Assembly (NCBI GenBank): GCA_020137815.1
Contig: CM035362.1
Location: forward strand, 5,022,001-5,086,000
Source: Hormiphora californensis
Taxonomy: Eukaryota; Animalia; Ctenophora
Direction: 5' to 3'
Length of the DNA stretch: 64,000 nt
Both the position numbers and the translations under genes were made by a program. The notes under the pieces are model-generated. The model worked only from the letters and a program-made list of their open reading frames with translations, searched no databases and had not been told where the DNA came from. Each line of letters starts with the position of its first letter. Positions within the stretch are counted from its first letter, which is position 1. Positions 901-52,855 of the stretch are shown one piece after another.

Positions 901-33458
<32,558 letters not shown>

Positions 33459-41280: not shown

Positions 41281-42829
41281 AAGAGAGAGAGATACAAAGA
41301 GCGAGAGAGAAAAAGAAAGAAATCTCGACGTTATTTGGAAGGCCCCACCCACGCAACTGACACCTCCGGAGCATTGGCAACAAACACACACACACACACG
41401 TCGCAGAAAGAAAGACAGAACACAGACACAAAAGTATATTGCTTCCTCCTACAATATCTCTCACAAAGAGAGTGCAATTTGAACTGTGCCTACGTACAAT
41501 GTATCTGATGACGTGTTGTGTGGGGACGTGGATAAAGAGGATAATTTATCTCAGGGATTATGTAGTGGGAAGTGGGAAGATCTCAAATACTAGATAGATA
41601 TAATTATATCACCTATTATAAATATCAGCTATAATGATACACGTCTGTAGGCTCTCAGCTTCGATAGTCCCAGAACTTCAACGGACTATGACGTCATATA
41701 ATTAGTAACCATGGTAACCAATAGCATCCTAGTCATGATGTCACCATCGTGACGTCATATCATCATCGTGACGTCACACATCAATGTGGAGGAGCAGGAG
41801 TTGACTTTGCAGCAATAGTTGCCTCGTCAATTATCTTAAGCAGTTTGCTGCACTGATCTTTCACCCCCATTATACACTTCAAATCGACCTGAAATAATCA
41901 GTGATTTGAAAAATAAAAATTTGGGCCGGAATTAGACGGTCACCATGTTTGCCATATTTCCATGTAAACGGTTTTAGGGAGATTTTAGGGGATGGGACAA
42001 CAGTGTGGAAAACTCCAAAATTTCATGCAAGATTGACTGATCGCACAAAAATGTGGTTTTGTCATATTGTCAGTCTTGCATGAAAGAATGTGGTTGCGAC
42101 ATTTTAATTTTAAATCGGCTGTAGCAAAAAAATAAACAAAATTTACAACGGACCGGAACGAATCCAAGACTCTGAGTGCTAATTAGGTAACAAAGGAGTG
42201 AGAGCAATAATTAATATGTACCAGCTGAGAGGGAGAGAGAGGTAGAGGAGTAGAGAGAGGAGTAGCTTAGAGAACTTGTTACTCTTGATAGGGAGAGAAC
42301 GATCGGAGTCATGAGCGGAGCGATCAGCTCAGGGAGAGCTAATCGAGACTTAATTAAAAATCATCTTCGTAGTGATATACAATTACAGACAGGAAAATAT
42401 TGCACTCTCTCTCTCTCTCTCGGTCCACTACACGCACCACTCCCGCATGGGGCCGTAAGGTCCCATGCGTGAGCAGGGTTAAATCCCCCGAGCCCGGATC
42501 CTGTTGGATCTGAGGGCCCGGAGGGCCTGCGGAGTAAAGGTAGGTAGAACAATGTACATAGGGGTATGTTGAACAATGTACATAGGGGTTAAAGTAAGGG
42601 AAAATATATAAAGGGGAATTAAAGCTCATAGTGACGGAGCAAAAGACCTCCTAAACTATCTGGAAAGAAGCCCAACCATCTGGAACGGAGCCTAAGAAGG
42701 GTCAACTTATCAGGAACAGAAGGAGCAAACCGTCTGAATCTAGGGAAACCTAGGGGCAAGCAGGAACGGGTATAAAGGGTAACAATTAAATAAATTACAA
42801 TAACAGTGGGAGACAGCTCAGGAGGTGAA

Positions 42830-45800
42830 TTACATATCGAGGACCTTCCGGAGCGTGTTCATCGAGTTGAAGAGGACTGACTTTTGGAGCTGTGAGGGGT
42901 ATAATTGGCGGGTTATAGCAGTCAGGTACTTCTCTAGTCGGGGACTGACTCCGCCAAGAGCTCCAATCACGATAGGGATGACCGTGGCCTTTTTAAGATC
43001 CCAAATTCGTGTGATCTCTCTCCGTAATTCTTGGTATTTCTCGATCTTTTCCATCTCCCTGTCCGAGACTAACCTATCTTTTGGTACGGCGACATCAATG
43101 AGTAGTGCCTCCTTCTTTATTTTGTCAAGAAGGACCAAGTCAGGTTTACATGCCTCGATGGGATTGTCCGTCTGTATGTGAAAGTCCCAGAGGATCTTGT
43201 AATTCTCATTCTCGAGAACTTTCTCTGCATAGTGGCTCCACCACTTTGATTCAGCAGGGAATCCGTAGTCCTTGCACATTCCCCAGTGTAGTGCAGCCGC
43301 TACTCGGTCGTGCCTGTGTTTATAGTCCCCGTTGGCCATCTTCTGACATCCATTTAGGATGTGTTCAACAGACTCGTTATGCTGGTTGCATATACGACAC
43401 TTCTCGGACTCTCCAGGTTGCTTCTCTATAGCAGCTTTCAGCCAGTTTGTGCGAGTGGCTTGATCCTGGGCGGCAAATATCTCGGCTTCGGTATATTTGC
43501 TGAGGCTCTCTTTGTTGAGCCAGGCCCAGGTCGCATCAGGGTCGCATCTCCCTTCTTCAAGTTGCATTAGGAATCGTCCATGGAGTGGCTTACTCTTCCA
43601 TTTCTCTATCAGCTGCGTCTCAAGTCTTTCTTTCAGGGTTTCGGCATCTTCTGGGGGTTCCGTCAGCATTCCTTCTTTTCCCATTGCTATTTTAAGTGCC
43701 TTTATCTTGGGATCAGTTGAGTTGTTGAAGAACGTCACTAGCCCTGTTTCTTCCCTTACTATGACGTCTTCAATCCTCTGGAGGCCTCTGCCTCCCATCT
43801 TTCTGCTCACATATAGCCGATCAACGTCGGTGTTGTATTTCAAGAACCCTCTTCTTAGGATCTTCCTGGTTGTCATGTCTAATCCTTTGGCCTCTGTGGC
43901 AGTCCAATCCAGTATTCCGGCACCGTATCGAATCACTGGTATTGCCCACGTGTTAATTGCCACGGCGAGGTTTTTACCAGACAGGTTGGAAGACAGGAGT
44001 TTCTTCACTCTTCTAGTGTATTCAATCATTACCTTGGCTTTCATCTCTTGATGTAGGATCGAGTCAGCCTCCAGGATACCAAGGTATTTATATCCACCAT
44101 CTTCCACTTCCGGGATTGTCTTTCCACTTGGTAGATCTATTCCCTGCATTCGACTCCTGACTCCGTTCACGATGTCTAGTGCTCCACATTTGGATATACC
44201 AAAGGACATGTTAATGTCAGTGCTAAACTTCTCGGTGACAGCTAACAGCTGCTGGAGGTCCTCTTTTGAGCTAGCGTATAGTTTAAGATCGTCCATATAG
44301 AGGCGGTGGTTGATATCAATATCTGTGGCGGGTGCTTCTGGATCAGATATGGTGTAGCCTCTTCCTTGGGCAGCTAGGAGCAAGGACAGGGGGATCAGTC
44401 CAATAATAAAATGTATCGGGGAGACAGAGTCTCCTTGGAAGAGGCCTCTTTTAATGTGGACTTTGCCTAAGGTGGAGCCGGATTGGACTAAATTAACTAT
44501 ACACTGCTGGAACGATGTCTCGAACAGTCTTATGATCTGTGGGTTTATTTTCAGCATTTCCATTGATTTCAGAATCCAGGAATGTGGGATCGAATCGTAC
44601 GCCTTCTGGTAATCAATGAAGGCCATATACAGGGAGGACTTGGTCCGTTTGCAATGACGCAGTATAAGTTTGTCGATTGCCAACTGTTCTTTACATCCCC
44701 TGCTCTTCTTGCGGCAACCCTTTTGCTCTTCAGGGAAGAGTCTGTTTACGTCGAGGTGTAGGTATATGTCTTCTGACAGCATTCCTGTATATAACTTCCA
44801 GAGGTTTGGGAGGCAGGTTATGGGTCTGAAGTTCCCCGGATCGCTCATTCCTTTCTTGGGGTCCTTTAGTAGCAGGTATGTTCTGCCTTCAGTCATCCAT
44901 CCTGGGACCTGGCCTGTAGTAAGACTTTCATTGAGCAGCTCAGCTATCCGTCCATGGAGACAGGTTGTGTGCTTGATCCAGAAGGCATGCAGGCCATCTA
45001 TACCTGGGGACGACCAGTTGGTCATTCCCTTCACACGGGCAGACACTCTTTCCGTGGTGATCTGGAATTCCTCTTGCTGGTTGACCGCCTCAAAGTTCTC
45101 TTGGATGTCATCTAACCACTCCGCTTCAGTGTTGTGGCCTACGTCATTCTCCCATATGTCTTTCCAGAAGTTAAGTGTCCTCGTCTGGTCCTCTGGTGTA
45201 GATTCGTTATAGCCTTTCTTGGGCAGGAGTGGGTATCTTCTATAGATAGTATCTATAGTTTGGAACTTCTGGGTGGTTCCTCTGCTCATTTCGGTCAGCC
45301 TGGAAAGGTCTGAGCGAAGTTTGGCGACACTTTCCTCAAGTCGTCGCAGCCACATCGGTTGCTTGTTCCTTCTGGGGGAGTTACTGGTGGTTTCACTAGG
45401 TGCCTCAATGCCCATTTGTTCTCGGACCACATGTGCCACGGCCATTAGAAGAGTGTTCAATGTGGTGAGGTCTGGGGTTTCAAAGGACTTGATAACCGGG
45501 CTGAGTCTATCAATTGCCACACGTAGCTTCCCCCATGGGACCTGTCTCAGGTCTGTTACTTTGATGGAGCTCGGTTCCTCGAGCAGTTTCTTGAACAGCT
45601 CCCTGATTTCCGGGTTCGGTGATGGCCCTTCCTCCTCCACTGGGTTTGTGGGGGGTTCGATGGCTTCTGGGGGTGGGTTGTCTTCTAGCACAGCCTGTCG
45701 TGCCGATTCAGTTGCTTCACGGTCGGCTATGGCCGCTGTTCTGATTTCCATCAGCTTCTGTGGTGAAAGGAGTCCAGACTGAGTTATAGATCTCAGTTGG

Positions 45801-46324
45801 GATCTAAGCTGGTCATCAGTTTTGGAAGGGTAGGTTGTCTTTGACCACCTTTCCTCCACTCGGTTCCATACTCCTCTTTTGTCCGGTTGTGAGTACGAGT
45901 GGATGAACACGAGCGTAATGTTCATTTCAGTGGTCCATTTCGTTCGTGGCGCTCTAGTTGGGGGTGGTGGTGGGGGTGGGGTGTCGGTGTCCCCATTGGC
46001 CGAGGTACTCGGACCCGCAGTGTTATCATTCACCGTGAGGTCCACTTCCGGGAGTATATTTAGGCCAGATGCTGCTAGCCCTGCTAGCATTCGCTGATCT
46101 GCCATCTCCTGCGGTGTTACCATGTGTCCAGATTTCTCTATTGATCTGAACTGGCTTGAGAGTTTGGCACCTGTTAATGGATCGTGTCCCTTGTCTTCCC
46201 ATAGGCGTTCGAGCCTCTTCCAGGATCCGGATGTGCCTGGATTGCTGCTGTAGTAGCAGTACACCAAGTCTAGGTTCTCTTGCTTAGACCAGACCTTCCT
46301 TGGTTTACGGGTGTTAGTACTCAT
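42830..46324 (-). CDS. R4-clade ORF: duplicated N-terminal Myb-like motif, reverse transcriptase, CCHC finger, restriction-like endonuclease
   Basis: SPGIDG, FRPITCL, FIDYQKAYDS, GLFQGDSVSP, YMDD, CRIC..ESVEHILNGC, RHD, KPD..LIDVAVP..KIEKY. Confidence 0.95.
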   Translation of the reverse strand: MSTNTRKPRKVWSKQENLDLVYCYYSSNPGTSGSWKRLERLWEDKGHDPLTGAKLSSQFRSIEKSGHMVTPQEMADQRMLAGLAASGLNILPEVDLTVNDNTAGPSTSANGDTDTPPPPPPPTRAPRTKWTTEMNITLVFIHSYSQPDKRGVWNRVEERWSKTTYPSKTDDQLRSQLRSITQSGLLSPQKLMEIRTAAIADREATESARQAVLEDNPPPEAIEPPTNPVEEEGPSPNPEIRELFKKLLEEPSSIKVTDLRQVPWGKLRVAIDRLSPVIKSFETPDLTTLNTLLMAVAHVVREQMGIEAPSETTSNSPRRNKQPMWLRRLEESVAKLRSDLSRLTEMSRGTTQKFQTIDTIYRRYPLLPKKGYNESTPEDQTRTLNFWKDIWENDVGHNTEAEWLDDIQENFEAVNQQEEFQITTERVSARVKGMTNWSSPGIDGLHAFWIKHTTCLHGRIAELLNESLTTGQVPGWMTEGRTYLLLKDPKKGMSDPGNFRPITCLPNLWKLYTGMLSEDIYLHLDVNRLFPEEQKGCRKKSRGCKEQLAIDKLILRHCKRTKSSLYMAFIDYQKAYDSIPHSWILKSMEMLKINPQIIRLFETSFQQCIVNLVQSGSTLGKVHIKRGLFQGDSVSPIHFIIGLIPLSLLLAAQGRGYTISDPEAPATDIDINHRLYMDDLKLYASSKEDLQQLLAVTEKFSTDINMSFGISKCGALDIVNGVRSRMQGIDLPSGKTIPEVEDGGYKYLGILEADSILHQEMKAKVMIEYTRRVKKLLSSNLSGKNLAVAINTWAIPVIRYGAGILDWTATEAKGLDMTTRKILRRGFLKYNTDVDRLYVSRKMGGRGLQRIEDVIVREETGLVTFFNNSTDPKIKALKIAMGKEGMLTEPPEDAETLKERLETQLIEKWKSKPLHGRFLMQLEEGRCDPDATWAWLNKESLSKYTEAEIFAAQDQATRTNWLKAAIEKQPGESEKCRICNQHNESVEHILNGCQKMANGDYKHRHDRVAAALHWGMCKDYGFPAESKWWSHYAEKVLENENYKILWDFHIQTDNPIEACKPDLVLLDKIKKEALLIDVAVPKDRLVSDREMEKIEKYQELRREITRIWDLKKATVIPIVIGALGGVSPRLEKYLTAITRQLYPSQLQKSVLFNSMNTLRKVLDM

Positions 46325-46604
46325 GTCGAATAAGATGAGTAAGTTTGGGGGGTGAGTTTCAAACCAATCACTGTGTATACATAGTCATCGGTTTGTTAGA
46401 AGAAGAGCCGGGTTTGGGGGTCTTAACACTGCCACCGGTGCACAGCGGTAACGGAATCCCACCGCCACATTTGGTCCGTTAGTAGATGGTTTTTCCCGGC
46501 CATCCTTGCAGCTTTTCAGCACGAACCGACACTTTCAGCGTTCGGGTGTGTATCTATATGTCTATATGGTGGAACTGGAACGGGGACTTATGTGAAGCAT
46601 TATG

Positions 46605-47425
46605 ATCTAACTGGAACGGGGTAAACTATCCTCTCACTCTCAGGAACAAGGTAAACTATCCTCTCTGGAACGGGGCAACTATCCTCTGTGAAGCGGGGTA
46701 AATTATCCTCTCTGGGACGGGGTAAACTATCCTCTCTGGAACGGGGCAACTATCCTCTGTGAAGCGGGGTAAATTATCCTCTCTGGGACGGGGTAAACTA
46801 TCCTCTCTGGAACGGGGCAACTATCCTCTGTGAAGCGGGGTAAATTATCCTCTCTGGGACGGGGTAGACTATCCTCTCTGGAACGGGGCAACTATCCTCT
46901 GTGAAGCGGGGTAAATTATCCCTTTCGGGACGGGGTAAACTATCCTCTCTGGAACGGGGCAACTATCCTCTGTGAAGCGGGGTATATTATCCTCTCAGGG
47001 ACGGGGTAGACTATCCTCTCTGGAACGGGGCAACTATCCTCTGTGAAGCGGGGTAAATTATCCTCTCTGGGACGGGGTAAACTATCCTCTGTGAAGCGGG
47101 GCAACTATCCTCTGTGAAGCGGGGTAAATTATCCCTTTCGGGACGGGGTAAACTATCCTCTCTGGAACGGGGCAACTATCCTCTGTGAAGCGGGGTAAAC
47201 TATCCTCTCTGGGACGGGGTAGACTATCCTCTCTGGAACGGGGCAACTATCCTCTGTGAAGCGGGGTAAATTATCCTCTCTGGGACGGGGTATACTATCC
47301 TCTCTGGAACGGGGCAACTATCCTCTGTGAAGCGGGGTAAACTATCCTCTCAGGAACAAGGTAAACTATCCTCTCTGGAACGGGGCAACTATCCTCTGTG
47401 AAGCGGGGTAAATTATCCCTATCTG
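46605..47425. repeat. Higher-order tandem array (23-24-bp monomers, 71-bp trimer) in the R4 5' UTR
   Basis: CTATCCTCTCTGGAACGGGGCAA / CTATCCTCTGTGAAGCGGGGTAAA / TTATCCTCTCTGGGACGGGGTAAA cycling. Confidence 0.95.
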
Positions 47426-47678
47426 GATCGGGATCCTATTAATGAAATGGATTAGGGGGTTAGCAGATTAGTATCAGGATTGGTTAGTGGGTTAGTAGAT
47501 AAAGGGGCATCGGAGGTCCACAGGTGGCTGGAAGGTGCCTGTTCCACTGGTAACCCTGAGCCGGAGAAGGCGGGGTAGGAACGTAGTAGTTGGCGATGAT
47601 ACACTGTGGGCCGCCTAGCCAAGAAGATCTTTTTGTGTTTTGTATTTTATGATTTTTTTCCCGTATTTTTGATACACA

Positions 47679-47806
47679 GCCACGCTTAGCCACGGCCACA
47701 CGGACCTGAAAATCGATCAAGGGGAAAAGGGGATGGGGAAAAGGTACTCCGTGTGACCCTGTTGCCCGGGGGAAACCGATAGGAGGTGGTGGCAGGTGGA
47801 CCAACT

Positions 47807-47811
<5 letters not shown>
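47679..47811 (-). ncRNA. HDV-like self-cleaving ribozyme at the 5' end of the R4 element
   Basis: P1 GGGGGAG/UUCCCCC; P2 GCCAC(C)/G(C)GUGGC; P3 ACC/GGU; L3 UCCUAUC; P1.1 GG; J1.1/4 GCAA; P4 CAGGGUCACACGGA/UCCGUGUGGCCGUG; J4/2 GCUAA with catalytic C. Confidence 0.85.
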
Positions 47812-47897
<86 letters not shown>

Positions 47898-48446
47898 TTA
47901 TTAATTATTGCTCTCACTCCTTCGTTACCTTATCACTCGGAGTCTTGAATTCGTTCCTGTCTGTTGTAAACTTTATTCTCTTAAACCTATATTTTTGCTA
48001 CAGCCGATTTAAAATTAAAAAGTCGCAACCACAATTTTTGCGTTAAAATTTATGGAGTTTTTTTGCGATACAGAGCTTCTCTCATTCAGAATGATCTGAG
48101 CAAGGATTAAATATGGAAGAAAATGGAAAAATACTGGGTTTGACCGGGAATTGAACCAGGGACCTTCAGAGGGTCATGCTCGAAGCTTTACCAATAAGCC
48201 ATCAAACTCTTTTTAGGATGTATGTATCATTAAATGTTTGCGATTTGATCTGATAAGAAAGAGAATATGCGATCAATTCCGGTCCTATTTCTGACAGTGA
48301 TAGCTACTGCATCAGGTTAGTGGATAAATTGTGATTAACTTGCAAGACAACTACGCAGCCTTTACACTTTTGTTTTGAAACTGGTTGTTTATTTTATCGA
48401 GCAACTAATCTGCAAAATAATCTTGCTGCAACAATTTGTTTTGCAG

Positions 48447-50144
48447 AATGGAAGAGCGTGGTAAGGCAGGTGGAGATTGGGCCGCTCCCTGACACATTCC
48501 CAGTTGATGTTGAGGCTGATTCAAATGGAAAAATTTCGATAAGATTTTACCGTAGAGAGGTGGCGATAGGGAACAATGCTTACTCAATTGAATCGTGTAC
48601 GAGCTACACGTGGCATTTCATCCAGTTCCCAGTGACTATCCCTACCGGTACTCGGACTTGGCGGCTCACAAAAACCGGGGGAAATAAAAGTTAGTGATTC
48701 ACTGCAACGGAGAGAATGTTTTGGAATTTGCCTTCTCGGAGAGTTCCTTCAATCCTGGGTGTAGCGACAATTGGCAGGGAGAACAGGAGAGTTACTTTAA
48801 ATTCTATGGCATAGACACGGCATCATTGCGCTTCCGAAGTTAGTAATTATTATTATAAAACTCGTAACAATATGAATATGGTGTAAATGAACACTCCTAA
48901 ACACGTTGATGAGTGATCCTTCTCCACGTTTTTCTATCTAAGGCAAGAGTCATTACTTTTTCAAAGTCTTTAGTGAAATCAAGGTCTCTCTCCCTGAGGT
49001 CACTCTTCAAAATATTCAACAAGTTAGTTTGGTGCCTCCCTCTTCTACCTTTCATGTTCGAGGTGCCGAACAAAGCAAACTTTATAGCCATCATTGCCGG
49101 GGCATTTGACTGGCTACGGAGGATGTGTCCAAACATTTGCCATCTGGCAACAGTAATCCGTTCACTTAGCGGCCTGGTGTTACACCTCTGATACAGTGTA
49201 GCGTTGGAGATGCACATTGGATAGTGTATCTTCAGGATACTTCTCAGATGTTTTCGGTGACATACATCGAGATACTCCAAAGATTTTTTGGGTGCAGCCC
49301 AGCTGTTGCAGTTGTAAAGCATAACAGAAACGACTTGGGCCTCGTACAGCTTCAATCTCACTGCTAAAGATATCCGGGTACCCTGCTCCCATACATTTTT
49401 GTATTTGTTGAAAGCTATGTTTGCTAGAATACAGCGGCGTTCGATGTCCTCAATACAGCCGAGTTTGGACCCGAGTGATACGTTTGACCGCCATGGCTCG
49501 CGATCCTTCAACAGTTCACCTTTACTGTCCCTTTCATCCTTGGCTGCTAGAAACACTATAGATATATCAGAGAGATACCAGGTATATCTATTAGATATAC
49601 CTGAATAGTCTTGCTTGTATTTTACTATTTAATAAATCCAGTGAAACGTAACAATATGTGCACTGTACTTGCCTGGCTAGACTGTGTTTCGGTAAACACT
49701 GTACAGTAATAATCAGTCATCAGGACCTGGAAATGACACTTAAGACCAGGAACCGACCGAATCAGGAAATACTGGTCCCTGATTGGCTGATAACCAGTCA
49801 CGTGACCTCAATAACGAGTTCTGATTGGTTGTTTACTTGTTTCGGTCGGTTCCTGCTTTAGACGCTCTATATTCCGTGAAGCACTACTGCACTGTGGGTT
49901 GTACCCGATATACATAAGTCTTCACTATAACGCAGAATTATTTCAGTTGTAGCTTGCCAAACTCCAATTTTACCGGATAACACTACCACGGTCCAAGGTG
50001 GAACACTAGACGAACTTTATTCCATCGGGAGTGTGCTGGAGATGGGTTGTGAGGCAGGGTGGACGAGTCTGAACGGAGCACAGAGCATCACTTGCTTAGA
50101 GGAGGAGATGTGGTCGGAAAACAGGCCGGATTGTGTACAACCAG
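48447..50144 (+). CDS. Partial extracellular protein: uncharacterised Trp/Cys domain exon (48447-48838, one frameshift) plus sushi/CCP exon (49947-50144)
   Basis: EWKSVVRQV...CTSY..F...TWRLTKT...LVIHCNG...W...F..IDTAS; CQTPILP...GSVLEMGCEAGW...GAQSITC...WSENRPDC; both exons phase 1-1. Confidence 0.65.
48843..49556 (-). mobile_element. 5'-truncated RTE-clade LINE
   Basis: ORF 48897-49556 (KLYEAQVVSVMLYNCNSW, ISNATLY, RWQMFGHILR, RRGR); (TAA)n-like tail. Confidence 0.8.
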
Positions 50145-50499
50145 GTTCCTAATCTAATTGAAATTAGTGGGCCGAAAAGGTTACCCCTCTGTTATTATTG
50201 CTCATGTATGCAATAAAAGGGGTGACTTCGTAACCAATCATTTGAGCTACCTTCATTCACGGGGTACAGACAGGGTATAAGTTATATTAGACAATTTTAA
50301 CCGGTTATCTAAGTTTTCACAGTACACCGTTTCCGGTGGTTAAAGTGTACTGTGAAATTTTAGACCACTGCAAAAACACTAGTAATTATAAAGTAAAATA
50401 CCGCTGCAGTGGTATGTGAAAAATTAAACACTTTCTAGTCACACGCACACAGTGTGAACATTACAAACATTACAAACTGAGTGAACGGGATAAAGATTA

Positions 50500-50553
<54 letters not shown>

Positions 50554-50683
50554 GCCTCTACGAGCGCTCTCTCTCTCTCTCTCTGCTCGCTCTCTCGATC
50601 TCCGCTTCTCTCTCTACTCGCTAGCGCTCTCTCTCTGCATCTCTCTATCTTCTCGCGCTCTCTCTCTCGCTCTTCTCTCTCTG

Positions 50684-50715
<32 letters not shown>

Positions 50716-50783
50716 TCTCTTCTCTCTCTCTCGTCTCTCTCCTCATGCTCTCTCTTCTCTCTTCTCTTCTCCTTCTACTCTTC

Positions 50784-50814
<31 letters not shown>

Positions 50815-51950
50815 GATCCCGCTCTCTCTGCTCATCGCTCTCTCTCTCGCTCTCTCTCTTCTCCTCTCTCTCCCCTCTCTCCTTTCCCCGTCTCTCCCTC
50901 TCCCTCTCCCTTTCTGTTTTTTGTTTTTGTTTGTTTTTTTTGTTTTGTTTTTTTTTTTTTTCTTTCTTTTCTCGGGCCCCCCTCTCCCCGGTCCCCGGCT
51001 CTTTCCCTTTCCCCCTCCCCCTCTCCACTTTTTTTTTGTCCTCCTACGTCCGTACCTATATAATTCCCTAGGGGGAAAGAAAAGATAAGGGTTAGGGCGT
51101 GTGCACACTGCACATTTTTCCCAACTCATAAATCAAATCCAATTTTCACAAAGTTTACCCCTAGAATGAGTTCCTACGATCATTCTAAAACATTTGGTAA
51201 AAAAATTTTAGTCCTACCCTGGCCCAATTACGTGGGCCGATGTATGCCCATATATGGGCATATTCATATCAAAAAATGTTTTTTGGGGCGTTATTTCGAA
51301 AAAACCACACATATGAATCGCCTCATGAGAACCAGTACAACCATTATTTCCAGTCTGCACCTTCAGAACTCCATTTTATAATGAAAATTTTTTTTTTTCA
51401 TCTTTTTTTCTTGCACATTTTCCTACTTTGCAGTACATATTAGTTGAGACGAATTTTAACTTTTTGAGATTTTATTTGTCGGAAACCAAATTCCGGTTGT
51501 AACCGACTACTTTTGACCTGCTGAACACGATCCCGTTCATGAAAAAGCTCTCAAAATTGAAGAAAATGGCCAAAATGAACATTTTTAGTCAAAAATGAAC
51601 ATTTTTGGTCCAAAATGAACATTTTCAGGTCAAAAATGACCTTTGGCTAACTTTCATGATACACATCCATTCTGATCGGTATCAAACCGCTGAACACGAC
51701 CCTGACCATAAAAAGTTGATATCAAGAACATGCCAAACACTGGTGTAAAACACACATATTTTCCTTTTTTCGGTAAAAAAGTAAACTTTTTTAATCGCCT
51801 GGCCCACGTAATTGACATACACTATCCCAATTCCGTTTTCAGGATGTAGTAGACAATTGTCCATAGTTTCATATCTACCCTTAACCTTTTGGCCAAGTCG
51901 ACAAAATTTTCACTTAGCACACCCTACTGTGCAGTAGTGACTACTGCACA

Positions 51951-52009
<59 letters not shown>

Positions 52010-52855
52010 TTCTCTTTCTCTCTCTCTCTCACTCAATCTTTATCTCTTTCACTCAGTTTGTTTCCAAAATCATCTAATAAAATTAGATGACTGCTTTTAC
52101 ATGCTCTATTACACAACAATAATGTTAAAGATTCTTTCACTTGTAGGCCTCGCAGGCTCGGCCCAAAAGTACAACTACAGAGCTCGCAGGCTCGCTCAGT
52201 AGTTACACTTGGCGTTCCTCGCAGGCTCGGCAGCTAAGTAAAAGGATCTACCTCGACCTGTCGGTCTCGGTTCATTATTGTTGTATTTAGAACACTCGGC
52301 CTTCGGCCTCGTGCACTAAAAAGTAATAGACCATTTTAACCAGTCATCTAATCATATAACAGATGCCTCGTCTATCTTCAAAAGTGAATGCACTGGTGCC
52401 AAAGGGCAACCTTTCCGGCCCACTAATTTCAAATAGTTTTGGTATAATTTGCATCATTTTTTGGGATGAAACTGATTAGTAAGTAAAATACCGTGCATGG
52501 GGTTACACGGATGTAATGGGTACCGGCAAGGGTATCGTGCCTCCTGAGCATTATTATTAAACGTCCGATTTTCTAATAAATATTTAAAGAGCCATTTAAT
52601 TTAGCTGTAAAAAAGTTGGGCAACTTTTTTCGGAATTGTTCGATACTTCGTTCTACCTAATTTCGTAAGCTTTTTGGTATTTTTTGTACTACACAAAAAA
52701 TACTCAAGTAAAACGTACGTGGAAATAATCGTTGCTCATGTACCAATGGTCCCCCCCCCCCCCCCCCCCCCATAAACCCAACTCGGGGGAATAAGGGGGA
52801 TTCTTGTTTTGTTCAAAACGAAGCGAAAAGAGGGTCGAGGCAAGGGGATGCTCTA

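Follow-up and report, generated by a model that had tools for sequence, protein, structure and literature searches.

A putative R4/Dong-type retrotransposon with a probable preference for (GA)n microsatellites in the ctenophore Hormiphora californensis

Among retrotransposons that lack long terminal repeats (non-LTR) and have a restriction-like endonuclease (RLE), the R4/Dong group likely includes the nearest described relatives of the element analysed here. According to excerpts of the cited sources, Dong targets (TAA)n (PMC7998251, PMC3812793), as an earlier reading of the present DNA from its sequence alone (the sequence-only reading) had stated. The ribozymes of R4 and Dong cleave at the 5' junction (PMC3774820), and Rex6 is classed under R4 (PMC6274825). 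Other repeat targets named in such excerpts are TTC for Koshi and AC for Mino and Waldo (PMC3812793, PMC4494074), together with unnamed microsatellites for some HERO families (PMC4640811). In the excerpted part of PMC5035012, R2 is the sole such element reported from ctenophores, and a survey, Fell 2025, is described in PMC13580325 and PMC13586686, whose excerpted text lists no targets. In this study, a 64,000-nucleotide stretch of the H. californensis genome (assembly GCA_020137815.1, contig CM035362.1, positions 5,022,001 to 5,086,000; hereafter the window) was found to contain a full-length, putative R4/Dong-type element lying between two (CT)n tracts (Table 1). We give a probability of about 0.77 to the reading that the family of this element inserts preferentially into (GA)n/(CT)n repeats with involvement of its protein; the (GA)n preference is probably strong, not absolute.

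The two CT tracts were on the same strand and in direct contact with the element, and measured 8.5 and 41 units where the sequence-only reading had counted approximately 8 and 40. On its own strand, the 3' end of the element (...GTGGACC) passed straight into (GA)n, and the poly-A tail was absent as had been stated. No second copy of the element was found within the 64-kb window. GA/CT tracts of at least six units numbered 28 and covered 1.6% of the window, compared to 2 AC and 4 AT tracts, so that (CT)n, previously described as very abundant here, is indeed the commonest dinucleotide repeat. Positions followed by at least 12 nt of CT/TC made up 0.74% of the plus strand and 0.36% of the minus strand (mean 0.55% of the window, this locus included). 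Because a mean of 0.55% of positions precede a same-strand CT run of this length, contact of the 5' end with a CT tract by chance is unlikely, at about 0.5%.

The 5' tract was located in one arm of a host inverted-repeat element. The two host arms were 81% alike over 188 columns, and in the arm-to-arm alignment the (CT)n of the right arm faced a degenerate GA run of the left arm. Since the left arm carries this mirror GA run, the CT tract is likely host DNA that is older than the insertion. In one listed contig of sequencing run X1, a diverged host interior entered the CT tract and, 6 nt short of the element, departed from the reference; no empty host copy was found within the 64-kb window. 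The suggestion that CT tracts often lie inside miniature inverted-repeat transposable elements (MITEs) held in part. Short inverted arms contained or enclosed four clusters, namely 31810-31860, the two that belong to this host and the 50503/51954 pair taken as one, but a crude count was not clearly above coverage, with 11 of 15 tract clusters inside inverted-repeat spans that cover 58% of the window. A second repeat family (1470-1870 and 50472-52061) had GA and TC tracts in its inverted ends.

At the 5' end, the first 134 nt of the element fit a hepatitis delta virus (HDV)-like double pseudoknot, in which G1 would be 47811 or 47812, P3 would lie at 47787 and the putative catalytic C at 47689. 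The HDV descriptor, which was composed after the sequence had been seen, gave this single match on both strands of the window, compared to 0 matches in 30 window shuffles and in 2000 local shuffles; it is narrow, with 0 matches in loci L001-L011. In a short rescan the Rfam HDV_ribozyme model gave a weak but independent match at the same place with 15 bits (E 4.6, far under threshold), whereas with E up to 10 allowed, a Rfam search over 6.1 kb around the element returned no ribozyme. The 5' 261 nt had an ordinary plain-folding score (z 0.45), which is what a pseudoknot would be expected to give. The predicted fold would provide the HDV-like 5' ribozyme of the R4/Dong group. If this ribozyme cuts at the 5' junction, the RNA would lack upstream GA and the 5' tract would hence be target DNA.

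Other copies were sought in sequencing runs of two organisms, in which contigs were aligned to the element; contigs do not equal loci, and runs of the same organism may share loci. The family was repeated, with thousands of contigs aligned per run. The loose-end results that follow are those among the rows listed (24/1151 and 24/286, 48/1,437 in all), and one set of joints comes from 12 of 19 rows. In all five runs (X1, X2, X3, X9 and X13), from two organisms, the 3' end passed into (GA)n. Past the 17-nt tract the X1 loose-end consensus stayed CT (9 contigs), and CT continued in X2, X3, X9 and X13 in 19, 13, 23 and 20 contigs with agreement of 0.96, 0.69, 0.57 and 0.54, respectively. The 3' junction was reached by 13 of 32 listed pieces, with identical phase in 13/13, and in the 7 listed pieces with flank past it the tract measured 8-16 nt (6 pieces) or 3 nt (1 piece). 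On the 5' side, at least five joints from element body to CT tract were present among those listed (42516, 42519, 43960 and 46249 in X2; 42552 in X13), a pattern to be expected if 5'-truncated copies lie in (GA)n. In several contigs of organism B (5 in X13, at least 2 in X9), the tract at the 3' junction (42406) measured 16 nt, near the 17 nt seen here; this possibly reflects a preferred distance to the tract end, or a few loci seen twice. Only 5-16% of the search words were present in the RNA runs X14 and X16-X20.

In the excerpt of PMC4494074, an element is considered target-specific when more than 20% of its flanks genome-wide are of one repeat type. Among the 48/1,437 rows listed here, the junctions were mostly (GA)n. 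The (GA)n targeting proposed in the sequence-only reading is supported in that the tract is likely part of the host, that the 5' junction carries a predicted ribozyme and that truncated 5' ends occur at tracts. The opposite pattern, in which other copies sit in random DNA and (GA)n is a mere tail, was not found among the listed junctions, with few exceptions.

Several observations weigh against this interpretation. The body-to-tract joints may alternatively be template jumps onto the GA tail of another RNA, and at least four joints in the reverse sense, from tract to body (44093, 42916 and 45908 in X2; 42497 in X3), are unexplained and nearly equal in number to the five supporting joints among those listed. 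A truncated-looking 5' end in X2 (42552, 2 contigs) entered non-CT DNA, and one X13 contig had only 3 nt of tract at its 3' end. The 48/1,437 rows do not provide a true junction ratio, and the copy described here is the only full-length 5' end examined. The post hoc ribozyme descriptor and its Rfam score far below threshold count on the same side. Moreover, the Dong-like loci L006 and L008 (see below) showed 2-3 TAA-like units followed by unrelated flank, and because of this, weak targeting combined with an element's own tail appears to exist among Dong-like relatives.

It can be argued that the endonuclease is lax and that the RNA brings its own GA tail, so that only nicks whose (CT)n primer pairs with this tail yield insertions. 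The constant GA phase of the 3' junction among the listed pieces, the length of the 3' tract, which varied between 3 nt and upwards of 17 nt, and the existence of Dong-like relatives with short tails are all compatible with such homology guidance. We consider it improbable, since the endonuclease residues and the Myb-like domains are conserved, target choice is made mainly by the endonuclease according to the excerpt of PMC4494074, and at least four internally ending copies that lack the normal 3' end likewise adjoin (GA)n, although these are open to other readings. Guidance by RNA homology is partly incorporated in the preferred reading of protein-assisted (GA)n targeting, in the form of GA pairing with the primer.

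The chance of about 0.5% for this copy, the inclusion of its tract in a host arm and the five or more truncated ends at tracts among those listed also make it unlikely that insertion is non-specific, with (GA)n as a tail that the element itself supplies and this copy in a CT tract by chance or selective survival. What speaks for non-specific insertion is that the window is rich in CT tracts (1.6% of its length), that one 5' end is non-CT and most loose-end rows are outside those listed, and that the four unexplained tract-to-body joints suggest other routes by which CT tracts are brought to element bodies. It is very unlikely that the real target is not bare (GA)n but the family of host inverted repeats, tract and adjoining arm together, in a manner comparable to Tx1 in a transposon. 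This copy is located in a host arm and several CT tracts of the window are located in inverted arms, but the consensus flanks past the tract differed by run, with the agreement of 0.54-0.69 in X3, X9 and X13 indicating mixed flanks, and host-flank depth was far under element depth.

Table 1. Positions in the window of the element, its parts and the flanking host repeats
Feature	Position	Strand	Remarks
Full-length non-LTR retrotransposon, putative R4/Dong-type	42422..47811	-	5390 bp; 5' end possibly 47812
Single intact open reading frame (ORF)	42830..46324	-	1164 aa
Myb/SANT-like domain 1, aa 9-75	46100..46300	-	35% identity between the two domains (E 3e-14)
Myb/SANT-like domain 2, aa 127-194	45743..45946	-	structural matches of the separately folded domain
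Reverse transcriptase core, YMDD motif, D678-D679	44177..44860	-	Pfam RVT_1 E 2e-26; conserved columns
CCHC zinc knuckle C976, C979, H988, C993	43346..43399	-	conserved columns
RLE: R1004-H1005-D1006, P1061-D1062, D1077, K1093	42905..43315	-	alignment to R2Tg endonuclease; conserved columns
Predicted HDV-like self-cleaving ribozyme	47679..47812	-	descriptor match; weak Rfam match
71-bp tandem repeat, 10.9 copies, within the 1487-nt 5' untranslated region (UTR)	46650..47426	-	
Structured 3'-terminal RNA	42422..42540	-	folding z -4.0; depth peak
(CT)8.5 tract, element 3' end	42405..42421	+	17 nt
(CT)41 tract, element 5' end, within right host arm	47813..47894	+	82 nt, 100% pure
Left arm, host inverted-repeat (MITE-like) element, degenerate GA run at its end	42083..42259	+	
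Right arm, host inverted-repeat element	47859..48039	-	

The last approximately 120 nt of the element folded strongly (z -4.0, 0/200 shuffles), and this structured 3'-terminal RNA is likely the signal for protein binding and priming. Contig depth, which was not used as a copy number, was highest over 42422-42540 in 4/4 runs, many pieces ended at 42516-42527 (approximately 95-105 nt from the 3' end), and joints from 42516/42517 to 42923 were found in X9. The depth peak could be due to short truncated copies, to deletion derivatives such as the X9 joints or to sister families sharing the 3' end, and a short non-autonomous partner is possible behind the contig ends at 42422-42527. A 13-nt motif of the tandem repeat in the 5' UTR (46650-47426) recurred in the 3' UTR (42659-42760) and may act as a binding site for protein at each end of the RNA.

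The single ORF encodes a reverse transcriptase core (RVT_1, Pfam E 2e-26) followed by the CCHC knuckle and the RLE, and each of the CCHC residues and of the RHD and PD..D..K residues of the endonuclease was shared by no fewer than 90% of the 79 relatives in the alignment. The AlphaFold model of the 1164-aa protein had a mean pLDDT (predicted local distance difference test) of 87.1, and R2 proteins were its best fold matches (E down to 8e-36). At the N-terminus, a 67-aa helical domain was present in two copies (35% identical, E 3e-14), the first with four helices in the model. When domain 2 was folded alone, its match list consisted mostly of Myb/SANT domains, including Sap1 (Z 7.1), Zeste (Z 7.0), TRF (Z 6.0-6.4), GT-1 and the R2 Myb region (Z 5.6), although Z values of 5-7 are middling. 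A Pfam search of the N-terminus gave no Myb match, and Foldseek with the isolated Myb-like domain returned nothing below E 0.001. The N-terminus of the element has a Myb/SANT-like domain (Z 5-7) without zinc fingers, here twice, and a domain of the same kind is present in R4/Dong elements according to the excerpt of PMC7998251.

Among 121 proteins surveyed, the Myb-like domain was double in 11, single in 81 and lacking in 29, most of which are probably cut short. In a 68-column tree of 34 domains, both copies of this lineage paired with each other (100/97), separate from two other double-Myb lineages. Because the copies of this lineage group together, apart from those two, this short alignment suggests that the Myb domain was duplicated repeatedly in independent lineages. 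That duplication and divergence of this domain brought a ctenophore branch of the R4/Dong group from TAA over to (GA)n can be offered only tentatively and is on balance doubtful.

The family profile was scored against the Dong-like L006 (867 bits, TAA-ending), 28S-inserted R4-like loci (424-544 bits), solved R2 proteins (96-185 bits) and L1 (75-81 bits), with NeSL and HERO outside the scored set. Because of these scores, the domain order and the N-terminal Myb-like domain, the element likely belongs with the R4/Dong group, nearer Dong, and the assignment to R4/Dong-type RLE elements made in the sequence-only reading agrees with all three. No rRNA match was found in 42200-48300, unlike R4 proper with its insertion in 28S rDNA; the flanks are (GA)n and not the (TAA)n of Dong proper. 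The N-terminal zinc fingers and 28S target of the R2 clade were likewise not found, nor was an N-terminal apurinic/apyrimidinic (AP) endonuclease, a feature of Kibi and Tx1, by domain search or in the model, the endonuclease being a C-terminal RLE.

The named relatives were a gene model of Pleurobrachia bachei (72%) and clusters with members from Bolinopsis (55%) and Mnemiopsis (54%). In a tree of 40 rows (35 of 121 proteins and 5 of 9 loci, built without outside clades or named R4, Dong or Rex6), the query and the Bolinopsis and Mnemiopsis cluster representatives were members of a single starred group of 16 rows. Nine contaminating eukaryotic loci with related elements came to light when bacterial genome bins were scanned. 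The Dong-like L004, L006, L008 and L010 ended in TAA-type repeats; they were 90-95% alike, partly tandem in L008, and came from a bin labelled Dehalococcoidia, which represents contamination by animal DNA. L007, L009 and L011 lay within eukaryotic 28S rDNA, at what we take to be the R4 site, with a 13-14 bp duplication at two of the three. They are complete R4-like elements (L007 104-4146, L011 127-5803, L009 to 4103) with open ORFs of 1268-1334 aa, also as contaminants in bacterial bins. Two matches of a metagenome pattern scan were chance hits inside bacterial genes, presumably resembling topoisomerase I, and were discarded. Among viral contigs, 0/9 candidate stretches were related by protein and 0 pattern matches were found.

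The insertion cycle can be outlined by analogy with R2, R4 and Dong, from which ribozyme processing, 3' RNA binding, nicking and target-primed reverse transcription (TPRT) are inferred. The element would be transcribed by read-through or internally, and the HDV-like ribozyme would cleave the RNA at the first G of the element, with loss of upstream GA. The protein would bind the structured last approximately 100 nt of the RNA, and its two Myb-like domains and endonuclease would recognise (GA)n.(CT)n as the target and introduce a nick into its (CT)n strand. The 3'-OH of the nick would prime reverse transcription, probably with the 3' GA of the RNA paired to the primer, and second-strand cleavage would leave the repeat on both sides, so that any target duplication would be hidden in the tract.

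Elsewhere in the window, a tRNA-like segment at 48136-48208 (minus strand; Rfam 33.2 bits, no call by ARAGORN) is possibly the head of a short interspersed element, and near it lies a C-terminal fragment of a long interspersed element at 48897-49628 (minus strand) with a weak DUF6451 match. An uninterrupted 1052-aa frame at 13037-16192 (minus strand) combined low-density lipoprotein receptor class A repeats with a rhodopsin-family seven-transmembrane domain, and a frame with a GIY-YIG domain at 30143-30820 (plus strand; E 4e-05) is possibly a fragment of a Penelope-like element.

New here for the R4/Dong group would be the probable (GA)n target and the ctenophore lineage, and new beyond the sequence-only reading are the predicted ribozyme, the Myb-like duplication and the host inverted-repeat element. 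No GA-targeting RLE element was found in the literature searched, which did not extend to the principal catalogues (Repbase, Kojima and Fujiwara 2004, Fell 2025), and a prior description is possible. Both ends of this intact copy are defined, by the predicted ribozyme and the 3' structure, making it directly testable, and close relatives that carry either a single or a double Myb domain open the basis of RLE target choice to testing. If the Myb switch were true, the single-Myb sisters in Bolinopsis (XP_063680167 cluster) and Mnemiopsis (KAL5262650 cluster) together with two further double-Myb lineages would form a natural retargeting series. The element would then amount to a compact writer of RNA into DNA at a dinucleotide repeat, one that processes its own RNA and for whose mobilisation an approximately 100-nt 3' signal is sufficient. 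Its value as a tool is doubtful, since (GA)n is abundant and scattered and offers no defined safe harbour.

Compared to known systems, as far as these are described in the excerpted sources, the closest likeness is to Dong of Bombyx mori, DongAg, DongBg and the ostracod Dong, which share the single ORF, Myb-like domain, reverse transcriptase, CCHC and RLE (PMC7998251, PMC3812793). The Dong/R4 clade is also alike in the terminal microsatellite (Dong) and in the HDV-like ribozyme at the 5' junction (PMC3774820), which is predicted here. In contrast, Dong targets (TAA)n and has one Myb-like domain, whereas this ctenophore element has (GA)n, two Myb-like domains and a long tandem-repeat 5' UTR. 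R4 of Ascaris and the loci L007, L009 and L011 (424-544 bits) are alike in domain order and in the lack of N-terminal zinc fingers, and R4 has a 5' ribozyme (PMC3774820) such as that predicted here, but the three R4-like loci are inserted in 28S rDNA and are approximately 28% identical to the present element. R2 (9nl2, 9nl3, 9dou, 8gh6) provided the best structural matches of the model and is the source of the inferred TPRT mechanism, but it scored 96-185 bits at 15-20% identity, bears zinc fingers at its N-terminus and targets 28S. For an RLE element specific to a dinucleotide repeat there is a precedent in Togen, a NeSL/HERO-related fish element compared by its description (PMC4640811), although that element uses (TG)n and belongs to another lineage. 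(TC)n microsatellites are targeted by Kibi of the Tx1 clade in teleosts (PMC4494074, PMC3812793), in accordance with the TC targeting that the sequence-only reading had ascribed to this clade. Kibi has an AP-type endonuclease and belongs to a different clade, so that the shared target would be convergent; if so, the same repeat was reached twice, by unrelated elements of the Kibi and R4/Dong types with different endonucleases.

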